A stretch of DNA of 38,965 nucleotides from a virus (IMGVR_UViG_3300029481_000019); one strand, 5' to 3'. Counted from the stretch's first letter, positions 5,181 to 38,965 are shown. The notes: generated by a model not told the origin, from the letters alone. Program-made: numbers and translations.

Positions 5181-5658
5181 CGGCCGCCTCCTCTATCTGC
5201 ACGAGCACGTTCTTCACGTCGATGATGTCGCCGTCGTCTGCCGGGAGCTGGGGCTGCATCGAACGCCAGGCGTCACCGCGGCGGTTGAACAGCCACATGG
5301 CGATGGCCTTCACGTCTGCCGGCACGTGCTTCTTGACCTTCTTGGTCAACACTTCCCGGCCAGTATCTCGGTCGAGCGTCCATGTCTCCTCGAAATAGTC
5401 GTACCCCAGCGCACGCCTGAGCAGCGCGCCCTCGACCTGGCCGTCTACGAGGTCCTCGGTGACGGTGAGCGCCTTGTCCAGCTCGGGCGACTGCTGGCGC
5501 CATTTCGCGAGTGTGTTGTGCGTGATCCCAATCTTGTCTTCGGCGATCGCCCTCACCGACAGCCCTCGGCGCCTCCAGTCGTTGATCAGCTCGATGCCGT
5601 CCTCGCCGAGCCAATAGCGCTTGCGTTGTACCGCGTTGTTGAATTTGATATAAGGCAA
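5158..5658 (-). CDS. terS: terminase small subunit (HTH-containing)
   Basis: 166-aa ORF immediately upstream of terL with an HTH-like segment (LSVRAIAEDKIGITHNTLAKW). It starts at TTG with a GGAGGG RBS and sits just downstream of iteron region A. Confidence 0.65.
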   Translation of the reverse strand: MPYIKFNNAVQRKRYWLGEDGIELINDWRRRGLSVRAIAEDKIGITHNTLAKWRQQSPELDKALTVTEDLVDGQVEGALLRRALGYDYFEETWTLDRDTGREVLTKKVKKHVPADVKAIAMWLFNRRGDAWRSMQPQLPADDGDIIDVKNVLVQIEEAADGDTPDA

Positions 5659-5799
5659 AACTTCCCTCCTGTCCTATTTGGCTATATTCTACAACGCGAT
5701 GTTCACCTGTACTGTTCAAGTGACTTTCGGGTAGTACGCATAGTGCCTACCATGTAAATCGAAACGCCTTCAAATGTTTACCGAGGTCGACATATACGC

Positions 5800-6210
5800 C
5801 CTCGACTACCTGTCACACTGCTGTCACACAGGTGTCACACCGCTTTTTTCGATTTATCTGCACAGTGTGACAGGTAGTATCGACAAAACGCGATGTAGAC
5901 GCATGTGTTTACAACTACCTGTCACACTGTCACACTGGCATGCTCCCCTATACCCCTATATTTTGAAAATATATATATTTATGAAATGATAGATATTCCT
6001 ATAGAAAATATCTAATATAGGGGCGGCCTGCTGTTTGCCAGTGTGACACTTGGGTACCCAACAATTTACCTACGTCGCGTTTTGACGCCTACTACCTGTC
6101 ACACTGGCCCAAAAGCCGTTTGACAGGTAGTGTGACAGTAACTTGCGCAGAACACCGCTATGCACCGATCTACGTCGCATTTTGACATCTACTACCTGTC
6201 AACCACGCAG
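5800..6210. repeat. Iteron / AT-rich palindrome element A. It has about 10 copies of the 8-bp core TGTCACAC (variants TGTCAAAC, TGTCAACC) in both orientations, including three copies phased at 11 bp (~5811, 5822, 5833) and a tandem pair (~5920/5928). A ~50-bp AT-rich spacer is flanked by the inverted repeat CCCCTATATT / AATATAGGGG (~5953-6023). There are 16-17-bp CTACGTCGCGTTTTGAC boxes at ~6070 and ~6170 and an inverted copy at ~5882.
   Basis: Read directly from the sequence. Element B at 22360-22670 is homologous and shares the core string AAAATATCTAATATAGGGGC. Confidence 0.8.
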
Positions 6211-6244
6211 ATAAATCGGAAAGTGTCATTTTCGGCCAGGAGAT

Positions 6245-6282
6245 ACGAAAAATGCCCCGAGGCATAAATCAGCCTCGGGGCC
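6245..6282 (-). terminator. Rho-independent terminator closing the early minus-strand block (stem CCCCGAGGC / GCCTCGGGG, 8-nt loop, then a U-run on the minus-strand RNA).
   Basis: Perfect 9-bp GC-rich inverted repeat at ~6255-6280 followed on the minus strand by CAUUUUUCG. It sits right after the last early gene (stop ~6362). Confidence 0.55.
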
Positions 6283-6361
6283 CTGCAAGCACACGTGCTA
6301 AGCCAAAACTGTGCCTTCTACATATGCTACAATCATTCTCTGATACGTTTCTGGGCTGCCT

Positions 6362-6643: not shown

Positions 6644-6818
6644 CTTCTTTCGGTTCGCACTTCTTGATGAATATGATCACAGAGTCGCAATGCGCACAAC
6701 GGTATTTGACTTCGCGCATGAGCGGCTTGCCCTTCTCGCAGACGAACACACGGCCGTTGGGGATATGCCCTGCGTGAGGGTCGATCTGCCTACCGCAGTT
6801 GGGGCATTTAATGGGCAT
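6630..6818 (-). CDS. zinc-ribbon small protein
   Basis: 62 aa, CPNCG...CAHCD motifs, GAAGG RBS. Confidence 0.5.
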   Translation of the reverse strand: MPIKCPNCGRQIDPHAGHIPNGRVFVCEKGKPLMREVKYRCAHCDSVIIFIKKCEPKEVDHG

Positions 6819-7155
6819 GGTTCACTACCTTCCTTCCGCACTGGGGGCAGAAGTTCCATGTGCCGCTCACGTGGTAGTGCTCCTCGTCCTCGACCCTGCA
6901 TCCGCAGACCGAGCACTCGAAGCCGTTGTCACAGGCTCCCATTTCGTTCTCGTCGTAGACGTTCTCGCACTCGCCGCGGTCGATTAGGTCGGCAATACGC
7001 TCGAACACGTCGTTCATCTCGTGGTATCCGATGTCGGGTTCCATTACCGTCTCGTCCAGCAGTTCATAGAACTCTTCTTTGTAGCGGACGCGGTTCATGT
7101 AGGATAGGTGACGCAGATTCTCTACAGTCTCGCAGCGCTCATCATTGGTAATCAT
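6808..7155 (-). CDS. zinc-ribbon hypothetical protein (paralog of 7152-7490)
   Basis: Starts MITNDERCETVENLRHL and shares MIT-DE, RIADLIDR, CxxCG and CPxCG blocks with the upstream gene. ATGA overlap with the upstream stop. Confidence 0.5.
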   Translation of the reverse strand: MITNDERCETVENLRHLSYMNRVRYKEEFYELLDETVMEPDIGYHEMNDVFERIADLIDRGECENVYDENEMGACDNGFECSVCGCRVEDEEHYHVSGTWNFCPQCGRKVVNHAH

Positions 7156-7490
7156 TCGTCCACCACCTCTGCACGGCACTCCGGGCAATATGTGAAATCT
7201 TCCGGGTCGCAGTCTGAATCGCCATATGTAAATGCTTTATACCCACACTGGCTGCAATGGAACGACCTGTAGTCATTCGAGAGGTTTCGGCATGTCGGGT
7301 TGTCGTGTCGGTCGATCAAGTCTGCGAGACGTTGAAATATGCTGCCGTCGAGGCCGACGGTGGCATCGCGGATCATGTTGAGTACAGATGCCTCATGTGC
7401 AATCGTGCGGTCGCAGTCCTCATCGTCGACGAGGTGGTCGAGTTGACGCAAAGTATGCACTACTCGGCGGCGCTTTTCATCAGTAATCAT
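7152..7490 (-). CDS. zinc-ribbon hypothetical protein (paralog of 6808-7155)
   Basis: 112 aa, GAGGAG RBS and C-terminal CSQCG / CPECR zinc-ribbon motifs. Confidence 0.5.
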   Translation of the reverse strand: MITDEKRRRVVHTLRQLDHLVDDEDCDRTIAHEASVLNMIRDATVGLDGSIFQRLADLIDRHDNPTCRNLSNDYRSFHCSQCGYKAFTYGDSDCDPEDFTYCPECRAEVVDE

Positions 7491-8668: not shown

Positions 8669-9496
8669 CTAGATACATTGATCGATTACGGCTTTGCCGC
8701 GTAACTGGTCGACCCACTTCGGCGGGATTGCCCCAAAACCGTAATACACGCCCGCGATAGCACCCGCGACAGCAGCCGTAGTATCGGTGTCGTCGCCTAA
8801 ATTGACGGCTGCGAGCACACAATCAGTATATGAGAACGTATTTAAAAAACACCAGAGCGCGGCCTCGAGCGTATGCTCGCAGTAGCCGTCGTTTTTGACT
8901 GCCTCGACAGGCCTCGATGCGATGTACCCGTATCTATGCCAGAGGTCGCCCTTCGCCGGCGTGCCGACATTGCGGATAGTCCGCAACATATCACACAGCG
9001 TTACACATGACCACTCGGCCACTGGGTGCGCATGCGTAATTGCCGAGACATCGCGTATATCATAGGGTTCGATGGGGTCGAGCATGGCGAGCGGTGCCGT
9101 CCTCATGAGCGAGCCGTTGCCGCAGTCGTCATATGACTTAGCAGGCACGCCTGTCGAAATAGCCCTCTTGCATGTCACGCCGACATCGAATACACGCCCA
9201 TCACACGTGTAGTCACCGTGCTCCAGCCATTGACGGAACCTGTAGGCGATGTCAGCCGTGTCGATGATTCCGAGCCGCTTGATGCTCGCGCATATGCACA
9301 AGGCCATCGACGTGTCGTCAGACCACGTGCCGGCATACTGCCCGTGCGTGCCGCCGTCGACCATGCCGGTGCATTCGAACGTGCCTCGCTCACGAAACTC
9401 ATATGGCACGCCGAGGGCGTCGCCGACTGCGAGCCCGTATATGCACGAGCGCATACGGTCCCTGTCGTATGATACGCAGTTATATATTGTCGACAT
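8669..9496 (-). CDS. ADP-ribosylglycohydrolase (ARH/DraG family)
   Basis: Starts MSTIYNCVSYD with a GAAGGAGGTG RBS. The N-terminal GLAVGDALGVPYEF motif and size (~276 aa) fit the ARH family. Confidence 0.8.
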   Translation of the reverse strand: MSTIYNCVSYDRDRMRSCIYGLAVGDALGVPYEFRERGTFECTGMVDGGTHGQYAGTWSDDTSMALCICASIKRLGIIDTADIAYRFRQWLEHGDYTCDGRVFDVGVTCKRAISTGVPAKSYDDCGNGSLMRTAPLAMLDPIEPYDIRDVSAITHAHPVAEWSCVTLCDMLRTIRNVGTPAKGDLWHRYGYIASRPVEAVKNDGYCEHTLEAALWCFLNTFSYTDCVLAAVNLGDDTDTTAAVAGAIAGVYYGFGAIPPKWVDQLRGKAVIDQCI

Positions 9497-9674
9497 AACG
9501 CACCTCCTTCGCCTCGTACTCGCCGACAGTACCGTCGGCGAACTCGACGAGCCCGACGGGTTTCTGGTTGTTCCCGAGGAAACCGCCACGCTGGAACCAC
9601 CCGATCAAGCTGCCGCCGTGCCCGTGCACAGTGACAGGCCTCCGCTCCATGGCCACGATCACTTCGACCTGCAT
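9480..9674 (-). CDS. small hypothetical protein
   Basis: 64-aa ORF translationally coupled (TGATG) to the upstream MazG-like gene. Confidence 0.4.
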   Translation of the reverse strand: MQVEVIVAMERRPVTVHGHGGSLIGWFQRGGFLGNNQKPVGLVEFADGTVGEYEAKEVRYVDNI

Positions 9675-9958
9675 CAATACCTACCCCTCTTCATGTTTCG
9701 TTTCTCGCAACGTGCCATCAGCTCCGACATATCATCGATGCCGACCGATGCAACACAGTTGACGACTGCTTGGATCACATCTGCGGCCTTGTCGAGCATC
9801 TTGTCGCGCGCCTTCGCCGAATACCTCTGGTTGTCACGGCGCTGTATCCAGAAACGCCATGCGACGAAGAACTCCGCCGCTTCCTCGAGCGGCCTCGTGA
9901 ATTGCTGCCGATCGTCTGCGTAGACATATTTGAACGGCTTCACATCACCGATTAGCAT
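9674..9958 (-). CDS. MazG-like all-alpha NTP pyrophosphohydrolase (paralog of 8354-8656)
   Basis: 94 aa with PLEEAAEFFVAW ... DVIQAVVNCV ... KRNMKRGRY. Confidence 0.5.
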   Translation of the reverse strand: MLIGDVKPFKYVYADDRQQFTRPLEEAAEFFVAWRFWIQRRDNQRYSAKARDKMLDKAADVIQAVVNCVASVGIDDMSELMARCEKRNMKRGRY

Positions 9959-9971
9959 GATGCCTCCCTCC

Positions 9972-10142
9972 TCATCGGTCTCTGACCATATACTCGATGC
10001 ACATGCCGAGCAGGGGCAGGGACAGGAACGCGTACTCGCCGCCTACGGCGAAATAGCCCCTGTCTGCGAACGCGTACGCCGCGGCGACGGCCGTGGCGGC
10101 TATCCCTACAACCGTCAATGCAGTGTAGACGAAATCGCGCAT
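9972..10142 (-). CDS. small hydrophobic (membrane) peptide, ~56 aa
   Basis: Not in the ORF track because it is under 60 aa. ATG preceded by GGGAGGA. Sequence MRDFVYTALTVVGIAATAVAAAYAFADRGYFAVGGEYAFLSLPLLGMCIEYMVRDR, with the stop overlapping the next start. Confidence 0.35.
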   Translation of the reverse strand: MRDFVYTALTVVGIAATAVAAAYAFADRGYFAVGGEYAFLSLPLLGMCIEYMVRDR

Positions 10143-10144
10143 CG

Positions 10145-10426
10145 TTAGTCCTCCCGTTGGAAACTGTCGTAATCTTCACTGACGGCACGTGCCCTGATGC
10201 ATGCCTCGTCGCATGTACGCGCCAAGACGCTGATCGCATCACCATCTGGACATTTAGCCCTCCACAGCACGAACGGCGTGCCATAGTCGATGATGCACGC
10301 CTTCCAGCCATGTTCGCGGTAACGCTTTGCCGTTGCGGCCGCGTCGTCGTAACTCCATTCCGGGATGTCGAACGGCTCGGCATCCTCGTCCTCCGGCGGC
10401 ATGACGAAAACGATATATTCGGGCAT
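10145..10426 (-). CDS. acidic hypothetical protein
   Basis: 93-aa ORF preceded by the conserved promoter-leader cassette. Confidence 0.5.
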   Translation of the reverse strand: MPEYIVFVMPPEDEDAEPFDIPEWSYDDAAATAKRYREHGWKACIIDYGTPFVLWRAKCPDGDAISVLARTCDEACIRARAVSEDYDSFQRED

Positions 10427-10470
10427 TTGTTCCTCCTTCTGGTTGACAAAGTCATTATACTACTTTCAAT
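10427..10470 (-). promoter_or_regulatory. Conserved promoter-leader cassette, copy 1 (minus strand): TAGTATAAT GACTTTGTCAACCAGAAGGAGGAACAA ATG
   Basis: Perfect -10 TATAAT and a shared TTGTCAACCA box with GGAGG RBS, about 27 nt before the ATG. The same cassette recurs at ~12044-12085 (minus) and ~12175-12212 (plus). Confidence 0.45.
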
Positions 10471-10719
10471 GCACCGATATTTCGATAAATTGAAAGTATT
10501 TTCGAACTACTTTAACGTTCTTGTGGATCGATGATATCTGCCAGCTTATCGAATAGCTCATAAATAGGCATATCCATCTCGTCTATGCCGTTGACACCGA
10601 AAGCCATGAGCACACTGTCATTGAATAAGTAATCCGGCGCATTGAAAATAACACTATCCTTGCGATAGTCATGTCAGTAATCGGCTTCGATACGCAGGCG
10701 CTTGGCTATCTCTTTCGTA

Positions 10720-11004
10720 TCAGTGATCATTTTGCTGCAGATCCTCTCCACACCACGGGCAATATCGCGGGATCGTCTCTATCTCGTCCCAATTCGTGAT
10801 GTACGTGTCGTCGTGCTCGAAGTGCGACACGCGGAAGACGAGGTCGCACCGGTGACAATGGACGGCATCGACAGGGTTGCATTCGCTTATAATCGCGACA
10901 TCGTCCAAATCAGTCATTTTGCGTGGCTTCCACTTCTGATGTGACGGAGTCGCCCCACACGTCGGGCAGTCGACACCCCTTATGAATCTGACTCTCCTAG
11001 GCAT
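10720..11004 (-). CDS. zinc-ribbon protein (CPTCG ... CHRCD ... CPWCG)
   Basis: 94 aa starting MPRRVRF with a GGAGG RBS. The track ORF 10720-11295 is longer only through an alternative-frame N-extension. Confidence 0.5.
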   Translation of the reverse strand: MPRRVRFIRGVDCPTCGATPSHQKWKPRKMTDLDDVAIISECNPVDAVHCHRCDLVFRVSHFEHDDTYITNWDEIETIPRYCPWCGEDLQQNDH

Positions 11005-11839
11005 CGGTAACCTCCGCCCCACACTCGATATCATCGACATGGTCGAGGTCGACGACCACCTCGCCGACGACTTCACCGTCGACTTCGACATCGGCGCCCT
11101 CATGCTGTAGGCGCTTCTCGACTTCGGCCATGAACTCAACGGCCTTCTCGGCATACACGCCGACCGTGGGCTCGCCGGCGAACAGGCGCTCGTCATAGCA
11201 GCGCTGCGCACGGCGGTTGCCGATCTTGAACAGGTACTCGAACGTGAGCTCAGCCGCGCCGGCCATGTACAGGTCGCCGGTGAAGACGATCTCATGCTTG
11301 TCGACTTCCATGCCTACACCGAAGTATGCCGACACGGTATCGGCCAAGTCGTAACGCCAGTGCTTGCGGCTGCCGACTGTCGTGTGCTCAGAGCGGGTAC
11401 CCTCGTCGCCGTTGGCCGCCCTGGCCTCGCGTGCGGCGTCATACACCTGCACGGCCTTGTCGATCAGCTGGAACTCATCAATGCCCTTCGTGCGGCGGTC
11501 ACGGAGGTTGGCGGTGATCGCCTGGCGGAAGCCGGCGTAATCGACAGGTGCGTCCTCGATGATCACGTCGCCGGTCTCGCCGTACTTGAACTTCTTGCCA
11601 CCGTCTTCGGGCTCGCCCTCGGCCTTGGTGAGATCGATATGCACGACCTGGCCGTCGAGGCAGAACATGTCGCGGAAGTCCTTCGTGACCGTGAGGGCAT
11701 CGTCCTTCTTGGCGATGACGCCCTTGCGGTAGAGCGACGGGAACGGGTTCGCCGGCATCTCGACTAGCACGCCCTTCTTGTCGATCGCGCACTCGTTGAT
11801 GAAACCGAGCTCTTTCTCGGTGAACGTTACCTCTGCCAT
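10997..11839 (-). CDS. hypothetical protein, 280 aa
   Basis: Starts MAEVTFTEKE with an AAAGGAAAC RBS. No family recognised. Confidence 0.55.
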   Translation of the reverse strand: MAEVTFTEKELGFINECAIDKKGVLVEMPANPFPSLYRKGVIAKKDDALTVTKDFRDMFCLDGQVVHIDLTKAEGEPEDGGKKFKYGETGDVIIEDAPVDYAGFRQAITANLRDRRTKGIDEFQLIDKAVQVYDAAREARAANGDEGTRSEHTTVGSRKHWRYDLADTVSAYFGVGMEVDKHEIVFTGDLYMAGAAELTFEYLFKIGNRRAQRCYDERLFAGEPTVGVYAEKAVEFMAEVEKRLQHEGADVEVDGEVVGEVVVDLDHVDDIECGAEVTDA

Positions 11840-11854
11840 GGTGTTTCCTTTCAT

Positions 11855-12043
11855 TTAGTGGATGAGCAGTTCGATGCGATCGAGTGCCGCATCCATAGAA
11901 CCGTATACACCGCGGAACGACTCGAAACCAAAATCGGGGTCGATCTCGGCGAGGAACATCTTGCCGCAAGTCTCGTCGCGGCGGATAACGAACGTGCGCT
12001 CGTAACCGAACTGGTCCTGCTTGGTGATCTTGATGGGCTTCAT
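11855..12043 (-). CDS. small hypothetical protein (MKPIKITKQ...)
   Basis: 62 aa, preceded by GAAGGAGGAG RBS and the conserved leader cassette. Confidence 0.45.
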   Translation of the reverse strand: MKPIKITKQDQFGYERTFVIRRDETCGKMFLAEIDPDFGFESFRGVYGSMDAALDRIELLIH

Positions 12044-12085
12044 TTTGCTCCTCCTTCTGGTTGACAAGGTCATTATCCCACGTGC
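12044..12085 (-). promoter_or_regulatory. Conserved promoter-leader cassette, copy 2 (minus strand; -10 GGATAAT, TTGTCAACCAGAAGGAGG)
   Basis: Near-identical to copy 1. Divergent from the plus-strand copy ~100 bp away. Confidence 0.4.
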
Positions 12086-12149
12086 ATGTACTCGTGTACA
12101 TACTTATTTTCAAAATAATCAAAAAACTTTTCGACGAATTTGAAAATAG

Positions 12150-12212
12150 CTATGTGCTTTCAGGTAGTTACCGGGTAATATAATCTTGTCAACCACGAGG
12201 AAGGGAAACATC
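12150..12212 (+). promoter_or_regulatory. Conserved promoter-leader cassette, copy 3 (plus strand): GGGTAATATAAT CTTGTCAACCACGAGGAAGGGAAACATC ATG
   Basis: Same TATAAT + TTGTCAACCA + RBS architecture, driving the opposite-strand gene 12213-12458. Confidence 0.45.
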
Positions 12213-12458
12213 ATGACTAAGACTTTCGACGACGCCATCAAGCTCGAGCGCATCGCTTTCAAGCAGCCGTTTAATGAGGCATACGAGATCATCGGTTGCG
12301 GCCGTCGCGTGAAGATCGTCCTCGACGATAATTGCGTGCACTACTGCCGCTTCAAGGCCACCAACCGTGGCGCATGGAAACTGATCTGCCGCAAAGAGTT
12401 CGAGAATGTGAACAAGCAGCTTTGCATCAAGAACGCACTCAAGTGGGTCAACGCCTAA
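12213..12458 (+). CDS. opposite-strand small basic protein, 81 aa, Cys-containing (possible DNA-binding regulator)
   Basis: One of only two credible plus-strand genes. It has GAGGAAGGG RBS, lower GC than its surroundings, sequence MTKTFDDAIKLERIAFKQ...CGRRVKIVLDDNCVHYCRFKATNRGAWKLICRK, and is followed by a bidirectional terminator. Confidence 0.55.
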   Translation: MTKTFDDAIKLERIAFKQPFNEAYEIIGCGRRVKIVLDDNCVHYCRFKATNRGAWKLICRKEFENVNKQLCIKNALKWVNA

Positions 12459-12479
12459 TAACATTACGTGTGATAAAAT

Positions 12480-12560
12480 AGGAAGTGCGGTTTTGGGCCA
12501 CCGCACCTTCCTCCTTTGTGAGGAGAACGCCCCAGATGCAATTGAGCGTCTGGGGCGTTC
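12480..12560. terminator. Bidirectional terminator pair (two adjacent ~11-12-bp GC-rich hairpins) between convergent plus gene 12213-12458 and the minus-strand dCMP deaminase operon.
   Basis: Hairpin 1 is AGGAAGTGCGG...CCGCACCTTCCT; hairpin 2 is GAACGCCCCAGA...TCTGGGGCGTTC followed by TTCTATTTACT. U-tracts are present in both orientations. Confidence 0.6.
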
Positions 12561-12569
12561 TTCTATTTA

Positions 12570-12995
12570 CTATGCACTTGTGACGACATCGACACCGGCG
12601 TTGTCTATCATGCGCGTGCACACGGGGCATGGTGAGATCTCATCAGCCGAGATGCGCTCGCCTGTCTCGAAGTCGACGCCAGCCAAGTACAGCGTCGCGC
12701 CGATCATCTCAGAGCGTGAGGCCGACAACATGGCGTTCATCTCGGCGTGTACCGCCGGGCATGAGCCGTAATCGCCGTCGTTATGCCCGTGCCCGCAGCG
12801 ATGGCATATACCTGTATCGATGCAGTTGACATCACCGCGCGCGGCGCCGTTATAGCCTGTCGCGATGATCTCATCATTGGCCACGATTACGGCGCCGTAG
12901 CGACGGCGCAGGCACGTCGACCTGGCCGCCACCGCGAGTGCGATGTCGAGGTAATACTCGGCTTTACTAGGCCTCTCCGGTCGATCCGAAAGCAC
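12570..12995 (-). CDS. dCMP deaminase (zinc-dependent CMP/dCMP deaminase family)
   Basis: HAEMNA and PCPVC zinc-ligand motifs. Probable GTG start with GAGGAGAGGGG RBS, overlapping the dUTPase 3' end; the track ORF extends to 13028. Confidence 0.75.
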   Translation of the reverse strand: MLSDRPERPSKAEYYLDIALAVAARSTCLRRRYGAVIVANDEIIATGYNGAARGDVNCIDTGICHRCGHGHNDGDYGSCPAVHAEMNAMLSASRSEMIGATLYLAGVDFETGERISADEISPCPVCTRMIDNAGVDVVTSA

Positions 12996-13386
12996 CGTCG
13001 CCCCTCTCCTCGCCCAACTGCTCGACAAAGTCGGCCAACACGATCGGCATGACGACGAGCTGGCCGATGCGGGTGCCGCCGGGGACCTTCTTCAGTTTGT
13101 CGGTTAGGTTGGTGACGATCGCATGCACCTCACCGGTATAGCCGGAGTCGATCGGCGGCAGCTCGCAGACGAGGCCTTCGAGGCTCATGCCCGATCTGGG
13201 GAACACGCAGGCCATGACGCCGTCGGGCAGCTCGAGCGAGAAGCCTAGCGGGATGCGACGGGTCTCGTGCGGCTTCAGGGTCTCACCGAAAGTGGTGTAG
13301 ACGTCGGCGCCGGCGTCGTTATAATGCGCACGGACCGGGAGCTTGATGTCGGTATCCTCGGCGATACGGTTGATTTTAATCTTCAT
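12967..13386 (-). CDS. dut: dUTPase (trimeric dUTP pyrophosphatase family)
   Basis: All five dUTPase motifs are present: AGADV, PRSG, PPIDSGYTGEV, RIGQLV, RGDGAFGSTG. Confidence 0.85.
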   Translation of the reverse strand: MKIKINRIAEDTDIKLPVRAHYNDAGADVYTTFGETLKPHETRRIPLGFSLELPDGVMACVFPRSGMSLEGLVCELPPIDSGYTGEVHAIVTNLTDKLKKVPGGTRIGQLVVMPIVLADFVEQLGEERGDGAFGSTGEA

Positions 13387-14194
13387 CCTTTACCTCCGTG
13401 ACGATGGCGTTATTAAGGCAATATTTAGTGACAGTGTGCCTCGGCGTATCGGACGACATGGTGATGCGTTCGATCTCCGAGATATGGGTCAAAAACTTCT
13501 CGATGTCGAACTTGAGGTGCAGCGCCGCCTGCTTGCAGCACCAGACTTCGCGGACGCGGTCGATGTCCTTCTCATATGCATGGAGCGACACAGTGAAATG
13601 CGTATACTTGCCGTAGCCGACGCCGAGCTCGTTCGCGATGTGCTTCTGCAGCTCCGTGAAGAACACGACATCGTAGGGCGTGCCGAGCCATACGTCGTTG
13701 GAACGCATGATGCCGGTGCAGTCGAGCTTGCCCCCGCGGAGCTCGAACACGAGTGCGATAGTGCAGATCTCGTCTTTTGTCTCGAATCGCTCTGGGTTCG
13801 GCACATTGAAATTGATGACTGCGCGTCGTGAATACGGGTCACGCTTGAGCGTGTCGATGACCTGCGCGACCTGGTCGAAGCCATAGCGGTTGAACACGAT
13901 AGCGCCGTACGCAGATCGGTTCGTCACGCCATCGTCGCTGATGTGCTTCCAAAATGACGAGAACTTCGAGATGAACTCGACATCTTCGCGGCCGGTGAAA
14001 TACCATGCGAGCTCGCCCAACATATACGAAAGCGAGTAACCCATGCGGGCCGTCGCGATGTTGTCGGTGATGTCGAGCAGCGTGAAACCGCTGTTGAGCA
14101 GTTCTTTGGTGCCAGCTACCTCCTGGCCCTGCACCGATATTTTGCCGCAGAGTTGGCGGTAGATGTCGTTCATCGACTTGCCTACAACATGCAT
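13376..14194 (-). CDS. thymidylate-synthase-family pyrimidine C5-modifying enzyme, predicted dCMP-specific (dCMP hydroxymethylase or dCMP methyltransferase rather than a canonical ThyA)
   Basis: It aligns by eye to ThyA: ELAWYFTG ~ ELLWFLQG, DPYSRRAVINFNVPNP ~ DPDSRRIIVSAWN, catalytic Cys in EICTIA ~ APCHAF, and RSNDVWLGTPYDVVFF ~ RSCDVFLGLPFNIASY. The residue equivalent to ThyA Asn177 is Asp, the substitution that switches specificity from dUMP to dCMP (as in T4 gp42). His147 is also replaced. Confidence 0.7.
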   Translation of the reverse strand: MHVVGKSMNDIYRQLCGKISVQGQEVAGTKELLNSGFTLLDITDNIATARMGYSLSYMLGELAWYFTGREDVEFISKFSSFWKHISDDGVTNRSAYGAIVFNRYGFDQVAQVIDTLKRDPYSRRAVINFNVPNPERFETKDEICTIALVFELRGGKLDCTGIMRSNDVWLGTPYDVVFFTELQKHIANELGVGYGKYTHFTVSLHAYEKDIDRVREVWCCKQAALHLKFDIEKFLTHISEIERITMSSDTPRHTVTKYCLNNAIVTEVKDED

Positions 14195-14658
14195 TTCAGC
14201 ACCTCTTTCATGGCAGTCGCCGGGTTGTTGTCTTCGAGCACAATCGCGGCGTCGTGTGCCTCAGCCCACTCCTGGTAACGCTTGTAGATCTCGACGATGT
14301 TCGGGCAGACGACATCGGCGTACTCGTCGCCGCGTTCGTTCAGGCGGCCGATGACGACATGGAGCGGGGGCAAAAGCACGATGATCGGGATACGCGCGAA
14401 CTCGCAGAACTCCGTCAATTCCTCCGCATTGTCATTATTGATACGCGGCTCGCGGCCGAACAGGTCGGAATACACTTGCTCCGACACCCAGCAGCGGTCG
14501 ATAATGACACCGTCGCATGCGAGCTTCTGCAGATACTCCGGCATAGACTGGCCGCCGTTGGCGGTCATTTTCAGAATGTTCATGTCGAGTGCTCCGGCCA
14601 ATGACTTCGCGAGCGTGGACTTGCCGGCGCCGTCAGGGCCTTCGATGATGATGGGCAT
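14182..14658 (-). CDS. deoxynucleoside monophosphate kinase (thymidylate-kinase-like P-loop kinase)
   Basis: MPIIIEGPDGAGKSTLAKSL P-loop, ~158 aa, adjacent to the TS-family gene and analogous in position to T4 gp1. Confidence 0.6.
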   Translation of the reverse strand: MPIIIEGPDGAGKSTLAKSLAGALDMNILKMTANGGQSMPEYLQKLACDGVIIDRCWVSEQVYSDLFGREPRINNDNAEELTEFCEFARIPIIVLLPPLHVVIGRLNERGDEYADVVCPNIVEIYKRYQEWAEAHDAAIVLEDNNPATAMKEVLKCML

Positions 14659-14661
14659 GGT

Positions 14662-16545
14662 TTACTCCTTTACGAAAATACGTACACGTTTGCCGTTGAC
14701 ACGGCAGGTCTTGCTTGTCAGGCCATAGTGCTTGTTGGCCTGGCGGGTGAACTCGTTTTGACCAAGCGGCTTCAAGTTGTTCCTGATAGCCCAGGCCATA
14801 TAGTAGTCGTATACCAGCGCCGTCGACTCGTTCACCACCTCGTCGACGGGCGTGTCTGCGAAGTAACCGAGGACGGGGTTGTTGGCGACGTGGTAGTCCT
14901 CGATCTCCTTGACCACGACCTCCGGCATCGTAAACGCGCGGTTTGCCAAGACACGCTCGAGCCCCTTGAGGCCGATGTTGATCAGGTGGCTCATGACTTC
15001 TGGCGAGTGGAGCTTGTACTTGATGTATGGGTCGAAGTCCGGGTCGTCTTTCGAAAATGTCGCCTTGAACGGCACGAGCACGATGCGGTCGAGCACGGCA
15101 CCGGTCTTGTCCCTGATGCGTGGCATCGAATTCGCCGAGAACAGCAGTTTTGCGTAACTCGAGAAATCAAACGGGTCTTGACCCTTCCGCTCGGCGTTGA
15201 CGCGGTCACCGCTTACTAGCTTCTTGAAAATCGCCGGGTTTGCGATGAACTCGTCGCCGATGTCGTCGCCTATATTGGCCAGCTTGCCGAACAGCTCTGC
15301 CGTCTTGAACCTCTCGCCGAGCTCAGCCAGGTCGAGGGCCGACGTGTTGCTGTCGCCTAGCAATGTCTTGAGCATGTCCAGATACGTCGACTTGCCGTTC
15401 GCCTTGTCGCCGACCAAGATGAAACTCTTGCGGAGCTCGTTACGCCTATAGAACAGATAACCGATGACCTCCTCCAGCAATGAATATATCCCGTCGTCAC
15501 CGCAGGCGAGGCGACGCAGCGTCTTATCGGTGAACTCCGACCAAATCGTCGGGTCATACTCCCACGGGATGCGGTTCGTGATCACGAACTCCGGCGAGAA
15601 CGGCATGAGTTCCCCCGTCTTGAGGTCATACACGCCGTTGGCGAAAGCGATGTAATCGGCATCGGCCGCAGGTGCGTCGTCTTGGATGAGCACGTCGAGG
15701 TAGTTGAGTACCTCGGTGCGCTTGGCCTTCGACAACATGGGCAAATGCTTGATCATCGCGTTCTCGATAAGCAGATTGCCCGACACATAGACGCCGTCGC
15801 GGTATACGTGGAGCTGATGGCCGATCTTGATGATACGGTGCTCGTTCTTGAGGTACTCGGCGAACTTGTCGAACAGGAACGTGCCTTTGTTGAAAAACAC
15901 ATCTTCGGCAAAAGCATCGTCGCGGTAGACAACGTCCAGTTCTTGCTGCTCCATAGGCTTTTCGAACATGTACCGGTTGATGACGGCCAGGGTCTCACGC
16001 GCCTCGTCTTTCGTGAAACCCTCCGACTGCAGCGTCAAAATATAATTGAATAACGCTTGGTTGCGGCCGTCGCCCTCTTCCATCTCGCCAAACTCTGGTG
16101 TGTACTGCACGGGCCTGAGCCAGCACGGTAACTCGTCATAACTTTCGTCCGGCTCGATGTCATAGATCACGTCGCGCTCATGGCCGTCGACTTTCAAGCT
16201 ACCATATGTGGCTTTCGACCCGACTTTGATGTCTGCGTCGATGCCGACGGCCAGGCGTGCGTGCGTCTTGCATTTCATGCCACGGGGGTAGCCGACGAAA
16301 TAGAAATGCTTGCCGCGTGTCGTCGCGACGACCTTGCATGCAATCTGCTCGGCCTCGATGATGTCCATCAGCTTCTCGCTCTGCGCCATGTCGTCGACAT
16401 CGATGAAAATCGTCTCAGGCGCCAACACACCACCGTAACCGTCGAGTTTGCGTGCTTGGGCCAATGTGAGGTATCGGCCGTCCTTCAACTTCTGCGCACA
16501 CTTCTTGCCATTGAGCTTCACGTATCCGATAAATAGACGGTCCAT
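14662..16545 (-). CDS. bifunctional primase-polymerase / D5-type superfamily-3 helicase (probable start MDRLFIGY at the TGATG overlap with the PolB stop; an alternative GTG start at 16620 is possible)
   Basis: N-terminal prim-pol-like region (FIDVDD, GKHFYFV) and a C-terminal SF3/D5 helicase with Walker A VGDKANGKST. Confidence 0.8.
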   Translation of the reverse strand: MDRLFIGYVKLNGKKCAQKLKDGRYLTLAQARKLDGYGGVLAPETIFIDVDDMAQSEKLMDIIEAEQIACKVVATTRGKHFYFVGYPRGMKCKTHARLAVGIDADIKVGSKATYGSLKVDGHERDVIYDIEPDESYDELPCWLRPVQYTPEFGEMEEGDGRNQALFNYILTLQSEGFTKDEARETLAVINRYMFEKPMEQQELDVVYRDDAFAEDVFFNKGTFLFDKFAEYLKNEHRIIKIGHQLHVYRDGVYVSGNLLIENAMIKHLPMLSKAKRTEVLNYLDVLIQDDAPAADADYIAFANGVYDLKTGELMPFSPEFVITNRIPWEYDPTIWSEFTDKTLRRLACGDDGIYSLLEEVIGYLFYRRNELRKSFILVGDKANGKSTYLDMLKTLLGDSNTSALDLAELGERFKTAELFGKLANIGDDIGDEFIANPAIFKKLVSGDRVNAERKGQDPFDFSSYAKLLFSANSMPRIRDKTGAVLDRIVLVPFKATFSKDDPDFDPYIKYKLHSPEVMSHLINIGLKGLERVLANRAFTMPEVVVKEIEDYHVANNPVLGYFADTPVDEVVNESTALVYDYYMAWAIRNNLKPLGQNEFTRQANKHYGLTSKTCRVNGKRVRIFVKE

Positions 16546-18269
16546 CACATCACCCCAAACTGCGCTAACCGTATTTTCGCCAACTGTATATACCAAGCCT
16601 TGTCCAAATGGCTCGGGCACTTCTTACCGTGCACGTCGCCGTTGTCGATAAACGAGTGCTCACTCGTGTTGCCGAATTTCTCAGGCTTGGCCTTACCGGC
16701 CTTGACACGCCCGACCATGCCGTCCGACGCACGTGTGGATGCGAATACACGGAAGCACCTATCAGTGAGCCGCTCATGCCCGTGCACGCCGTACTTGTAT
16801 TTACCGGACACCTTCACCACGCGCTGGTAATCGATCAGATCATCATCGCCCATGATGGTGTCTTCGACGGGCACGCCGTGTACCATGTACTCGACGAGCG
16901 CCTTGTTGACGACGGCGAGGTCGTAGTCGAGCGGCCCCAGCTTCTTGACGTACGCGCCTTTCGTCTTCATCGACCCATCGGCCGCCACGAGGACGTAGTT
17001 ATTGACGTCCTTCTGGTAAACACGGGTAAACTCATCGAATTCCAAGCCCATACCGGTACGGTGCTCCCACTCATAGGCCACGTCGTCGACACGGTCGTAA
17101 AACGCGTCTGGCCCGCCATCGAAATCGTCAGGCATGCGGATGAGCACGCCATCGGTGTTGCTTTGGATGATCTCGGCACCCACATCGCGAACGAGCTTGT
17201 GCATGAGGTCGATGAGCATGAGCTGGCCGTTGACGCAAACCATATTGGCTTGCCGCGGGTCGTAGAGTGCATTGAACTTGTCTTTGCTGGCGCCGTAGGT
17301 GCCGTTGACGACGAGTTTCAATGCCTTCTGGCGTGGGTCTTTCGCATGCTTCAACTCGATACGGTGGTCTCGAATGCCCTTGAACTTCGACGGGTCATGC
17401 ACGTTGCGTGACAACAATTCGTGTGCAATCATCTCAGCTGGGTAATAACTCTCGACGTCGACGTTGATGAAATAACCCTCGCCGGCGTACTGCGCAATCG
17501 CGCCATGCAAGCCTCCCCATGCACACTTGTGCGGGCAGCCCGCGATGTCGAAATCGAGCGTCGCTGAGTAATCTTGATTCGCCGGGTCGAGGTACCACGA
17601 ACGGATGAAATCATACGGACCGAGGTCGAGGCACGGCAACGGCATGATGTCGAACTCGTCGTCGCGCGGTCGCGCAGGCCGCTCGGCACCGAGGATGATC
17701 GCCGTGAGTTGCGCATCGGTCTTACCGAGGTACACCAGCGGCAAGTCGAACATTTTGAGCAGATCCATACGGGCGTCGAACTCGCTTTTGCGCTGCATGA
17801 ATACCTCGATGGTCTGCTCGACATCGTGGCGGCAATATTTCACGGTCTCGGCGATCTCAGCCTCGGTCAATTTGCGATCGATGTCGAACGGCACCGTCGT
17901 CTCGCAAATATCGTTGCCGAGGTACGCCTCGTGAGTCTTGAGGCCCCTGTCTGTACGCGGGTGGAATACATCATAGTTGACCATGTAAACCTTGCGCAAC
18001 AAACTCGAATACTGCCAACCCTTGTGGCCTTCGGCGATGATGAAATCATTAATCGCCTTCGGGTTGAAACCGCACAAAATGCCTTTGAAAATGAATTGGT
18101 CATAATGGAGGTTGTTGTAACCTACCCAAATCTCACGCTTGTGCCCTTCGTAGAGCGCGGTGAGCGCGTCGGCATCGTTGATGATGACGCGCTCATCGTG
18201 AGTGACGGGGTTGATGACTACGACCATCCAGTCGTGTTTGAAAACTTCGAAGTCGTAGAAATTGAGCAT
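16545..18269 (-). CDS. family-B DNA polymerase, unusually small (574 aa) with 3'-5' exonuclease
   Basis: Exo I is DFE (FYDFEVF) and Exo III is YCRHD. Pol motif A is DVESYYPAEM (DxxSLYPS-like), motif B is KLVVNGTYG (KxxxNSxYG), motif C is SNTDGV (DTDS-like). Confidence 0.8.
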   Translation of the reverse strand: MLNFYDFEVFKHDWMVVVINPVTHDERVIINDADALTALYEGHKREIWVGYNNLHYDQFIFKGILCGFNPKAINDFIIAEGHKGWQYSSLLRKVYMVNYDVFHPRTDRGLKTHEAYLGNDICETTVPFDIDRKLTEAEIAETVKYCRHDVEQTIEVFMQRKSEFDARMDLLKMFDLPLVYLGKTDAQLTAIILGAERPARPRDDEFDIMPLPCLDLGPYDFIRSWYLDPANQDYSATLDFDIAGCPHKCAWGGLHGAIAQYAGEGYFINVDVESYYPAEMIAHELLSRNVHDPSKFKGIRDHRIELKHAKDPRQKALKLVVNGTYGASKDKFNALYDPRQANMVCVNGQLMLIDLMHKLVRDVGAEIIQSNTDGVLIRMPDDFDGGPDAFYDRVDDVAYEWEHRTGMGLEFDEFTRVYQKDVNNYVLVAADGSMKTKGAYVKKLGPLDYDLAVVNKALVEYMVHGVPVEDTIMGDDDLIDYQRVVKVSGKYKYGVHGHERLTDRCFRVFASTRASDGMVGRVKAGKAKPEKFGNTSEHSFIDNGDVHGKKCPSHLDKAWYIQLAKIRLAQFGVM

Positions 18270-20812: not shown

Positions 20813-22087
20813 CTAGTCACCTCCCATTGCAAACAGCTTCTCAGTGTAGTCGCGTCGCATAGCCAACGTATCGTAGATCTTCTCTTCGACAGTGCCTTTA
20901 GATACTAGCTCGTAATACGTGCATGGCTTGTCTTGGCCGACGCGGTGGATACGCTTCTTCGACTGCTCGAAGAGCGACGATGCCAAAGGCGGCGAGAAAT
21001 AGACGCACGTGTCTGCTTGCTGCAGGTTCACACCCATGGCACCAGACTGGTATTGAATGAGCGCGACCCCGTCGTCGGTATCGAAAAACGGCGACAAATC
21101 GTGTGCCTTGCCGTTGAGCACGCCATACGGCCTGTACCGCTTCTCCAACTCCGCCGTGAGCCCTTCGAGTTCGACGTCGAAATTGTAGAACACAACGAGC
21201 CGTTTACTCGTGCCGTCCAGCAAATCGCCGAACGCCTCGAGTTTGGCGCGCGAATACGCAGCCGCTAATTGGCGTTTCGCCGTGAGGTCGCCGAACACAG
21301 TGTCGCCGACGAAATCGCGGCCGAATGCCGTGATCACATTCGTCTTGGCGAACTTACGGTAATACTCGCTCATCGGTATGTCGATACGAATGAAACGCTG
21401 ATCAGGCAGGTCGATGACGTCGTCGGTCTTGAGGAAATCGCAACCGAGCTCCTTCATCTTGCGTACCAGCCTCTCCTCGTTCTTGTAACCCGTCACTTTA
21501 GTAATCGGGAAACCCTCACGCATCGTCGTCTCCGATTCGACGTATTGCCGCCAAAACAGCTTCTCGTCGATACGCCAGCCGAGCATGTTCAACTGCGTCC
21601 ACAGCCGTTCGTATTTGCCGTCGACAGGCGTGCCCGACAGCAAGATGAGCTCATTCGCCCTAGCTGCCAATTTCATCGCGGCCTTAGTACGCTTCGATGA
21701 TTTGTTCTGCAGCAATGACGACTCGTCGAACATTACGGCGAAACACTTCAACGCCTGAAGTTCTGGGCGCCTCCACAATAGGTCGTAATTGATCACACCG
21801 ACTGCGTCCCGTGCATGCGAGTCACCGATGCGCCGTTCAAAACCTTCCATGGCATGCGGCTTAGTCAAATTGACGACGTCGATATCATAGTAGTTTGCGA
21901 AATGGCCCATCCAGTCAGCCACTTTCGACTTTTGGCATACGACCAAGGCCAAATGCCAACACTTGTCCGACATCAATTTCTCGGCTCCGGTGAACGTCTT
22001 GCCCAGGCCCATGTCGTGGTAGAACGCGCAAGCGCGTTTACCCTCGACACGGTCAAGTGCTGCCTGCTGGTAAGCGAACAGGCCCAT
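20813..22087 (-). CDS. SNF2-family DNA-dependent ATPase/helicase
   Basis: GLGKT Walker A, DESS (DExx) box and helicase C-terminal motifs (QDKPCTYYELV...). Confidence 0.8.
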   Translation of the reverse strand: MGLFAYQQAALDRVEGKRACAFYHDMGLGKTFTGAEKLMSDKCWHLALVVCQKSKVADWMGHFANYYDIDVVNLTKPHAMEGFERRIGDSHARDAVGVINYDLLWRRPELQALKCFAVMFDESSLLQNKSSKRTKAAMKLAARANELILLSGTPVDGKYERLWTQLNMLGWRIDEKLFWRQYVESETTMREGFPITKVTGYKNEERLVRKMKELGCDFLKTDDVIDLPDQRFIRIDIPMSEYYRKFAKTNVITAFGRDFVGDTVFGDLTAKRQLAAAYSRAKLEAFGDLLDGTSKRLVVFYNFDVELEGLTAELEKRYRPYGVLNGKAHDLSPFFDTDDGVALIQYQSGAMGVNLQQADTCVYFSPPLASSLFEQSKKRIHRVGQDKPCTYYELVSKGTVEEKIYDTLAMRRDYTEKLFAMGGD

Positions 22088-22281
22088 TACACGAAAAACA
22101 TCGACTTGATTTCCTCACCAGTCAAGTCGTACCGGTCGGCGATAGCCTTGATCTCCGACTGTTTGAACTCGGCTTTGCCGTTGATCTTCCACGACAACGT
22201 CGATTCGGTGATGCCGAGCATTCGCGCGAGCCCGCTTTGGGTATCGCCGAACTCGCGGATTGTTTCATATAGGCTTTTCAT
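22087..22281 (-). CDS. Cro/Xre-type helix-turn-helix transcriptional regulator, first gene of the early block
   Basis: 64 aa with LARMLGITESTLSWKINGKAEF HTH and GAAGGAGGTGAAAG RBS. Directly downstream (in transcript sense) of iteron region B and a TAGTATAAT -10. Confidence 0.7.
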   Translation of the reverse strand: MKSLYETIREFGDTQSGLARMLGITESTLSWKINGKAEFKQSEIKAIADRYDLTGEEIKSMFFV

Positions 22282-22359
22282 CTTTCACCTCCTTCGATCG
22301 GCGAACCTCATTATACTACGTTTTCTTTCGATTTATTCGAGTATTTATAATTTTTTCGA

Positions 22360-22670
22360 AACACCTGTCACACTGTCAAACACCTGTCAAACGGCTGATT
22401 TTGGGCCTGTTTGACAGTAAGTCGCATCACTACGTCGCGTTTCTCACTGCCTGTCACACTGTCACACAGTTTTCTCCCCTATCCTTAGATAATTTGACTT
22501 TTTATATCTATATAAGGCCTATTAGATATATAGATATAAAAATATCTAATATAGGGGCCCCTTGTTGTTTGACAGCTTGACAGGTGATGAGAAACGCGAC
22601 GTAGAAATGCAAACACCTGTCACACTGGCCCTTTTAGGTGTGTGACAGGTGTTTGACACTGTTTGACAGG
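22360..22670. repeat. Iteron / AT-rich palindrome element B, with overall dyad symmetry. Forward TGTCACAC/TGTCAAAC copies lie on the left (~22366, 22374, 22385, 22452, 22460) and reverse copies on the right (~22567, 22640, 22651, 22661). A perfect 16-bp inverted repeat CTACGTCGCGTTTCTC (~22430-22445 / ~22589-22604) flanks the AT-rich palindromic core GGCCTATTAGATATATAGATATAAAAATATCTAATATAGGGGCC (~22517-22560).
   Basis: Read directly from the sequence. Homologous to element A (shared AAAATATCTAATATAGGGGC, TGTCACAC iterons, CTACGTCGCG boxes). Confidence 0.8.
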
Positions 22671-22676
22671 TAATTA

Positions 22677-38720: not shown

Positions 38721-38965
38721 TTACTTGTATTTGCTCTTCGAGCCGGTCCACTCTTTGGGATCCTGCTGGAACTTATCGTAACCCTGCTCGGGGTGCAGCT
38801 CCAACACGACATGCATCTTGCCGTCATCGCCTTTGTACACGTCGGTCGCGGTGTAGTAACCGCCGCGCTGCAAGATCATCTCAAACTCACTGCCGAAATA
38901 GTTCTGTTTCTTCTTGCCGTCCCAATCATCGTAATTCGTTGCGCCAGAGTATGCACTGAAAGGCT
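38721..38965 (-). CDS. C-terminal end of the same MuF-ART gene (ART catalytic region, stop TAA near 38721-38723).
   Basis: Reverse translation of the window end is continuous with reverse translation of the window start (...KKKQNYFGS|EFEMILQRGGYYTATDVYKGDDGKMHVVLELHPEQGYDKFQQDPKEWTGSKSKYK*). It contains the E-x-E-[IV]-L-L-x-R-G motif typical of C2/C3/iota/VIP2-type ADP-ribosyltransferases. The total gene is about 869 aa. Confidence 0.75.
   Translation of the reverse strand, partial: PFSAYSGATNYDDWDGKKKQNYFGSEFEMILQRGGYYTATDVYKGDDGKMHVVLELHPEQGYDKFQQDPKEWTGSKSKYK
38889..38965. repeat. 77-bp exact duplicate of window positions 1-77 (assembly overlap marking a circular, complete genome)
   Basis: String identity between the first and last 77 nt. 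Confidence 0.85.

Follow-up and report, generated by a model that had tools for sequence, protein, structure and literature searches.

Two palindromic iteron elements bracketing the early operon of an uncultivated gut phage: probable replication origins of the primase-helicase type

Introduction

The alpha protein of P4 reportedly combines a primase, an SF3 helicase and a C-terminal winged-helix origin-binding domain in a single polypeptide. It is said to recognise octamer iterons (TGTTCACC) at ori and crr, separate cis sites a few kilobases apart that are described as unlike in structure and as both needed for a single origin function. The Rep proteins of the SaPIs are self-loading initiator-helicases in which a C-terminal winged helix recognises short iterons (PMC9371898). 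The SaPI origin is found immediately downstream of rep and contains 6 to 12 iterons and an AT-rich centre, flanked on either side by no fewer than two iterons, those of the two sides being oppositely oriented; loading probably involves two hexamers, one per side (PMC9371898).

Two-origin layouts have been described in the Bacillus phage SPP1, where oriL and oriR, located ca. 13 kb apart and both bound by gp38, have a similar organisation (repeats plus an AT-rich unwinding element), one of them in the replication region and the other near the late genes (PMC6316719). It has been proposed that gp38 bound to oriR stalls the fork, leading to recombination-dependent concatemers by means of an exonuclease, an annealing protein, an SSB and a Holliday-junction resolvase (PMC6316719). 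In the Streptococcus thermophilus phage Sfi21, a 302-bp non-coding ori (the PER element) within the replication module titrates phage replication factors when cloned, according to the citation of Foley et al. 1998 in PMC6356513.

Here, we analyse a 38,965-nucleotide stretch of DNA from the virus IMGVR_UViG_3300029481_000019 (the window), in which an array of short iterons arranged as a palindrome around an AT-rich core (element B) has a homologue (element A) at another position. With a probability of roughly 0.75, we read both elements as a replication origin of the kind served by a self-loading SF3 primase-helicase (SaPI Rep/PriRep, P4 alpha), an interpretation drawn from their anatomy, from homology and from co-variation among relatives.

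Results

Genome organisation

The first 77 bases of the window are repeated at positions 38889-38965, and this terminal direct repeat indicates that the window is a circular assembly corresponding to a complete genome of 38,888 bp. The phage is siphovirus-like, with a GC content of 57%, and carries nearly all its genes on the minus strand (Table 1). Following this strand, element B precedes the early operon, which encodes, in this order, a 64-amino-acid HTH protein, an SNF2 helicase, a VRR-NUC nuclease, an exonuclease-Sak4 fusion, a DUF669 SSB, a DNA polymerase, a D5/P4-type primase-helicase, nucleotide-metabolism genes and small genes. The operon is closed by an intrinsic terminator, after which come element A and terS. 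On this gene map the early operon is headed by B and the late operon by A, which is how an earlier note, made from the sequence alone, had placed them. The GC skew was considered as an origin indicator and set aside, since its profile is monotonic, as a result of the genes lying on one strand, and says nothing on origins. Rfam and tRNA scans gave no matches, and a blastn comparison of the element and the replication module with GenBank phages returned nothing useful.

Several features of the gene content may be mentioned here. The early-operon stretch 8669-14658 (minus strand) includes genes for a dNMP kinase, a thymidylate synthase, a dUTPase, a dCMP deaminase and an ADP-ribosylglycohydrolase, while the relative L186 has ParB_N, an HMUDK_HMUD1-family gene and a PAPS reductase instead, a gene set that hints at DNA modification. 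Two adjacent ORFs (6808-7188 and 7152-7490, minus strand) both match phrog_21525, which suggests tandem paralogues; as the longest versions of these ORFs overlap by 37 nt, the first one probably starts later. Two contigs 91% identical to the window (L157 and L171) were found in MAGs named "uncultured Collinsella sp.," a weak hint that Collinsella could be the host.

Table 1. Features of the window, with positions counted from its first base
Feature	Position	Strand	Remarks
terS	5658-5158	-	Followed by terL and portal
Element A	5805-6205		Homologous palindromic iteron element upstream of terS; AT core 5957-6018
Intrinsic terminator	6254-6281	-	Closes the early operon just ahead of element A
Primase-helicase	14662-16545	-	627 aa from M26; proposed origin-binding initiator
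C-terminal winged-helix domain (coding region)	14665-14922	-	Residues 542-627; recognition helix QNEFTRQANKHY, then beta-hairpin wing
64-aa Cro-like HTH gene	22087-22281	-	First gene of the early operon; Pfam DUF739/HTH_3; GGAGGTG ribosome-binding site ahead
Probable early promoter, -10 box GTAGTATAAT	22310-22319	-	Between the iteron array and the HTH gene, outside the array
Element B	22363-22671		309-bp imperfect palindrome, dyad centre ca. 22517; inverted repeats, one-hairpin fold, conserved in relatives
B left arm, three outer iterons TGTCACAC, TGTCAAAC, TGTCAAAC	22366-22392	+	Starts 8 and 11 nt apart
B left arm, lone inverted iteron	22409-22416	-	
B left second box CTACGTCGCGTTTCTC	22430-22445	+	
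B left arm, inner iteron pair TGTCACACTGTCACAC	22452-22467	+	
B AT-rich core	22493-22552		17% GC; proposed DNA-unwinding element
20-mer AAAATATCTAATATAGGGGC (TATAGGGG box)	22539-22558	+	Same in A and B
B right arm, inner iteron pair	22567-22582	-	Second iteron with one mismatch
B right second box GAGAAACGCGACGTAG	22589-22604	-	Mirrors 22430-22445
B right arm, lone inverted iteron	22618-22625	+	
B right arm, three outer iterons	22640-22668	-	
Copies of the second word	6070-6079, 6170-6178, 22430-22445, 22589-22604		Degenerate copy near 5888
Small genes without assigned role	From the lysis genes down to 22677	-	Then the element B region, 22282-22676
Head, tail and lysis genes	38.6-25.5 kb	-	Reached after wrap-round from portal

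Anatomy of the elements

Allowing one mismatch, element B contains 12 iterons of the form TGTCAMAC, six per arm, at exact mirror positions around 22517. The extended word CTGTCAMAC has 18 exact matches in the window, 8 in A (5810-6138), 10 in B (22365-22669) and 0 elsewhere, where shuffling gave an expectation of 0.59 and 0 of 100 shuffles reached 18. The two second boxes of B make up a perfect inverted pair, and within its core there are perfect 16-nt inverted arms (22499-22514 and 22527-22542). As a single strand, the segment 22355-22675 folds into one hairpin of 305 nt (dG of -94 kcal/mol, z = -18.8). The iterons, the 20-mer shared with A, the 16-bp inverted repeat and the symmetric AT core described in the earlier note are thus all present, at the positions it gave. 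In the computed duplex stability, the AT cores of A and B are the two least stable 60-bp stretches of the genome (z = 5.8 and 5.5, respectively, with 4.0 for the next).

Element A has six iterons in its left arm and five, plus two degenerate ones, in the right. The homology between the elements that had been claimed was recovered by alignment, since A and B in either orientation (A+, A-, B+ and B-) are mutually alignable over ca. 340 nt, with a likeness between A and B of only ca. 63 to 75%. The 20-mer AAAATATCTAATATAGGGGC is repeated exactly in A (6005-6024; 0 expected), and its side relative to the AT core is the same in the two elements. On the minus (coding) strand it combines with the innermost iteron into a weak -35/-10-like pair (CTGTCA or CTGGCA, 16 nt, TATATT), which faces the core and could be an origin-activating or priming promoter. 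A sigma-70 scan detected no convincing promoter overlapping the iterons, only these weak iteron/TATATT pairs directed into the cores. Each arm also has, separating its outer iterons from the inner ones, a single copy of a second element-specific word, CTACGTCGC(G). This second box reads CTACGTCGCG in the window, AAACGTACGTTT in L151 and TACCAGGTG in L109 and L153, and across clades its changes parallel those in helix 3 of the Cro-like HTH protein. It may be bound by that protein or by a host factor. The element-specific words CTACGTCGCG and the TATAGGGG 20-mer are left unexplained by the primase-origin model.

The GTAGTATAAT box at -10 and the ribosome-binding site ahead of the 64-aa HTH gene, both expected on the minus strand from the earlier note, were found there, and the iteron array begins ca. 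46 bp upstream of the -10 box. A second copy of GTAGTATAAT is located at 10454-10463 (minus strand), and both copies have similar upstream TTCGAAAA and AAATCGAAA-like words; probably the two sites are early or middle promoters of one class.

Conservation and iteron words in relatives

An exact 18-mer scan of IMG/VR yielded 70 loci, of which ca. 57 belong to close relatives with genomes of 35 to 39 kb. The loci of these close relatives carry either an A-type (74 to 95% identical) or a B-type (87 to 99% identical) element, the latter range holding for B in 24 of them, and contigs represented by two loci had one element of each type. Among these phages the iterons are almost invariant, and the AT core varies by indels. 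Wider relatives were collected by searching with the primase and taking 10 kb on either side of it, and then four plus two intermediate relatives were added through the exact protein. Since the loci L071 to L153, L185 and L186 were retrieved through the primase, the co-occurrence of element and primase in them is partly by construction.

The layout of the window is kept, with at least nine different iteron words, among phages whose primases are 50 to 86% identical. In one arrangement there are two elements, the first ahead of the early operon and the second close to terS, as in the window but with other words. L185 (primase 86% identical) retains TGTCAMAC with a 5' flank of GCA instead of ACC, in a locus that has the B-type element only. 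The word is TGTCACACAC in L150 (78%), GCGTAACG in L186 (72%), CGTCAAGC in L151 (67%) and TGTCTCAC in L109, L152 and L153 (61 to 64%; one element only in the L152 locus), while eight loci have TCTTGACTT, L123 has TCTTGAACC and L128 has GTTGACTT. Wherever the locus includes both elements of a genome, they share the same word.

In the other arrangement (L103, L104/105/107/110/113, L108, L143, L145, L146 and L149, with primases 50 to 56% identical), a single element is located at the 3' end of the primase gene, directly past the stop codon, which it overlaps in L104 and L108, or ca. 370 nt beyond it in L146. L103, L143, L146 and L149 have the layout in full (iterons, inverted iteron, inner pair, AT core and mirror), and in L104 a late activator and next terS come after the single element. 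A single element at the 3' end of the gene is what SaPIs have, and its position corresponds to that of A at the early/late boundary. In L103 (11872-11926) the primase ORF runs into the first iterons, producing a repetitive ...LSETETLSETSSET tail, and the last five to six codons of the L104 and L108 primases are iteron sequence.

Arrays of CCTGTCACAC were also seen in unrelated phage groups (42% and 58% GC), namely in L009 (3987-4310), L022 (3561-3880) and L003 (2900-3210), the last with the relatives L006, L033, L037, L050, L053 and L065. The array is placed between a VapE/DUF5906 helicase gene and terS in L009, is separated from a terS-like gene by an 81-aa ORF in L022, and precedes an Sf6-type terS in the L003 group, with a prim-pol/DUF3987 helicase nearby. 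No protein common to the window and these phages (L003-type, L009/L022) was found; only a polymerase in L038 matched, and the L009 helicase showed no similarity.

The primase-helicase as candidate initiator

The primase-helicase matches Pfam D5_N and DUF5906 and has an SF3/AAA+ helicase core of the D5/P4-alpha/PriRep type. By phmmer it aligns with PriRep5 of SaPI5 (7OLA; E = 1e-38, residues 270-632 against 383-745), and the alignment extends into the C-terminal domain of PriRep5, which starts at residue 682. In the Foldseek comparison the 7OLA chains ranked first (E = 2e-17), ahead of ASFV PrimPol and poxvirus D5/E5. The C terminus of the AlphaFold model (pLDDT ca. 86 to 92) consists of two helices, 575-588 and 596-607 (the recognition helix), and two strands, 609-616 and 619-626, that make up the wing (609-626), and this winged helix aligns to the C-terminal domain of PriRep5. 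Homologues of the protein are named "phage/plasmid primase, P4 family" by some sources, and at least 7,856 of them reach E <= 1e-20 among 8,000 candidates examined. The longest ORF begins at a GTG at 16620, while public gene calls begin at M26 (16545), at the end of the polymerase gene. The elements do not adjoin this gene in the window, in the way that SaPI origins do, but are located 5.7 kb upstream and 8.4 kb downstream of it.

Across clades, the recognition-helix/wing region varies with the iteron class (EFTRQ with TGTC(A/T)CAC, EFSKQ with CTTGA and EFGKK with TGTAAC), a correspondence that is confounded by phylogeny. A comparison of the identity of the C-terminal domain with that of the rest of the primase was uninformative alone, the domain and the linker preceding it being the fastest-evolving parts. 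The most telling comparison is that of L104 and L108, which are near-isogenic, with 96 to 98% DNA identity over a shared early region of 9 kb and primases 97.1% identical. The spacers and AT core of their origins are nearly identical, and yet all of the ca. 9 iterons are changed (GTCCCGGAT versus GGTTCAAGAT). Of the 19 amino-acid differences between the two primases, 12 are concentrated in the last 35 residues, and half of these 12 fall in the part of the recognition-helix/wing region that is free of iteron overlap (Fisher p = 3.5e-4). Along the gene, the DNA identity is 95 to 100% and decreases to 72% only in the last 90 nt. This looks like the pattern expected for a DNA-reading domain co-evolving with its sites, and we infer from it that the winged-helix domain reads the iterons.

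Proposed mechanism

By homology with the SaPI Reps and with P4 alpha, the C-terminal winged-helix domain of the primase-helicase would bind the 8-bp TGTCAMAC at the six iterons of each arm. The AT core would then melt and two hexamers would load, head to head or tail to tail, after which the N-terminal primase domain would prime and the phage DNA polymerase would extend in both directions. We infer binding, melting and firing from the anatomy, the conservation, the co-variation of words with genomes and the protein homology described above. Two copies bracket the early operon, and we can only speculate that both might fire or that one of them might be an initiator-bound auxiliary site or a fork barrier of the type proposed for SPP1 oriR.

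Alternative explanations

The earlier note had left two roles side by side, a bidirectional origin (or two origins) depending on one factor and a master operator of the 64-aa Cro-like HTH protein that would act at A and B to switch between early and late transcription. The former fits the SaPI layout, the unstable cores and the co-varying words; the latter was not supported, and we consider it very unlikely. In its favour are the location of B directly upstream of the HTH gene and of A upstream of the late operon, the homologous small HTH gene found after element 1 in many relatives and the differences in HTH helix 3 between clades with different iteron and second-box words. However, no HTH homologue is present in the 17 to 22 kb examined of L106, L121, L130 and L131, although their iteron word, TCTTGACTT, is that of L112 and L125 and appears in two full elements in L121 and L131, while in L130 and L106 one of the elements carrying it is cut by a locus end; the homologue is also absent in L114, L115 and L124. 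In L123 and L125, two relatives that are temperate, the element is situated beyond a cI-like gene, outside the cI-cro intergenic region, and other relatives have their single element 3' of the primase gene. Cro/CI operators are dyads of 14 to 18 bp that overlap a promoter and are linked to a repressor gene, whereas the iterons are asymmetric tandem words of 8 to 11 bp that form an array upstream of the -35 region. The absence of the HTH gene from relatives with the same word and the location of the element outside cI-cro thus argue that the iterons are not Cro operators; the HTH protein is probably not their binder, and the factor common to A and B is more likely to be the primase-helicase. 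A packaging signal, with the iterons as small terminase sites in a pac or cos region, is an equally improbable explanation. It is true that A is ca. 150 bp upstream of terS, that the CCTGTCACAC arrays adjoin terS in unrelated phages and that L104 and L108 differ in their packaging module as well, TerS included, with similarity stopping 9 nt before terS, so that this pair alone would suit TerS too. But B, at 16.5 kb from terS, has the full layout, the AT-rich core with mirrored iterons is the anatomy of an origin, and L112 and L125 share an iteron word even though their TerS proteins are only 36% identical (compared to 67% for the primase C-terminal domain), with lysis genes lying between element 2 and terS in L125, which argues against TerS. 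Contig ends confined to A had looked like a hint of pac, an idea dropped when a fuller mapping of the close relatives (45 ends, from loci among L001 to L139) placed 9 ends in A (5600-6300) and another 3 in the B core (22508-22530), with <1 expected in each. Ends in both elements fit assembly breaks, and breakage at palindromes or repeats likely explains most of them; there may be a packaging end near A, which is not our main reading.

The remaining explanations seem to us more improbable still. No terminator is found ahead of B on the coding strand, so transcripts may read through into it, and the very strong fold of the 300-nt palindrome would be compatible with an RNA hairpin acting as an RNase III processing site or as an insulator between late and early transcripts. 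There is no Rfam match, though, and what is conserved is short words on both arms, the swaps of which keep the layout of DNA sites, and not compensatory pairing alone; such an RNA would also leave the AT core and the tandem repeats unexplained. The chances are slimmer for a centromere-like or host-factor array (for partition, nucleoid anchoring or a host initiator). Short-repeat arrays at two places resemble the dispersed parS sites of the N15 and P1 systems, but the scanned ORFs of the window include no ParA or ParB gene, and to our knowledge the iteron words match neither the DnaA box nor the parS consensus. Besides, the differences in iteron words between near-identical phages argue for a phage-encoded binder. 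Least probable of all is a MITE-like non-autonomous mobile palindrome that landed twice, despite the two copies, their overall dyad symmetry and their intergenic location. The elements are found at orthologous positions in phages with primases as divergent as those above, their words co-evolve within each genome, the two copies have only a limited likeness, and an 18-mer scan of 185,579 genomes found relatives of the element on phage-like contigs only.

Discussion

Reading A and B as origins would assign the origin(s) and a likely initiator to a large uncultivated group of gut phages, with ca. 57 loci carrying this exact iteron pair. The iteron words matched to winged-helix variants, at least nine and including one near-isogenic swap, provide material for understanding DNA reading by PriRep and P4-alpha proteins. 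The module is present either singly, where the primase gene ends, or as two copies around the early operon, a contrast through which the purpose of a second origin could be tested directly. Like the PER element of Sfi21, such origins can serve as phage-resistance decoys when cloned. A more elaborate possibility, which we find doubtful, is that the two origins work as a functional pair. One would fire and the other, either loaded with initiator or as a cruciform cut by VRR-NUC, would become a programmed fork barrier or break site, switching from theta replication to recombination-driven concatemer synthesis. As the pair brackets the early operon, that replication switch would be tied to the early/late transcription boundary.

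Compared with the described systems, the primase-helicase has its best match, in both sequence and fold, in the SaPIs (SaPI1, SaPIbov1 and SaPI5), whose SF3-type helicases have a C-terminal winged helix and, in PriRep5, a fused primase. The SaPI origin layout, with half of its 6 to 12 iterons on each side of an AT-rich centre, is found in B as 6 + 6 iterons around the 17% GC core, and the more distant relatives of the window also have the origin just 3' of the gene. However, the window is a complete tailed phage and SaPIs are satellites, its iterons are 8 to 11 bp and not 5 to 6, the dyads of its elements span 310 to 420 bp and have two further conserved boxes, and there are two copies per genome, both at a distance from the gene. 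With regard to this two-copy layout, the nearest precedent appears to be SPP1 oriL/oriR. Like SPP1, the window has two complete homologous elements, presumably with one common binder, and the toolkit proposed for the SPP1 switch has its counterpart here in an exonuclease-Sak4 fusion, a DUF669 SSB and a VRR-NUC nuclease. SPP1 differs in that gp38 is a separate origin-binding protein working with a loader and a DnaB-type helicase, in that oriL is inside gene 38 and in its direct repeats, which form no 300-bp palindrome. The Sfi21 ori, as described in the citing source, is likewise a short non-coding origin-like element in a siphovirus replication module, in a single copy instead of two. The satellite phage P4 is another precedent with two sites, although its ori and crr are reportedly dissimilar and the window has two equivalent complete palindromes. 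The elements are probably of a known kind, the SaPI/P4-type iteron origin, and what is unusual is the presence of two long-palindrome copies bracketing the early operon of a tailed gut phage.
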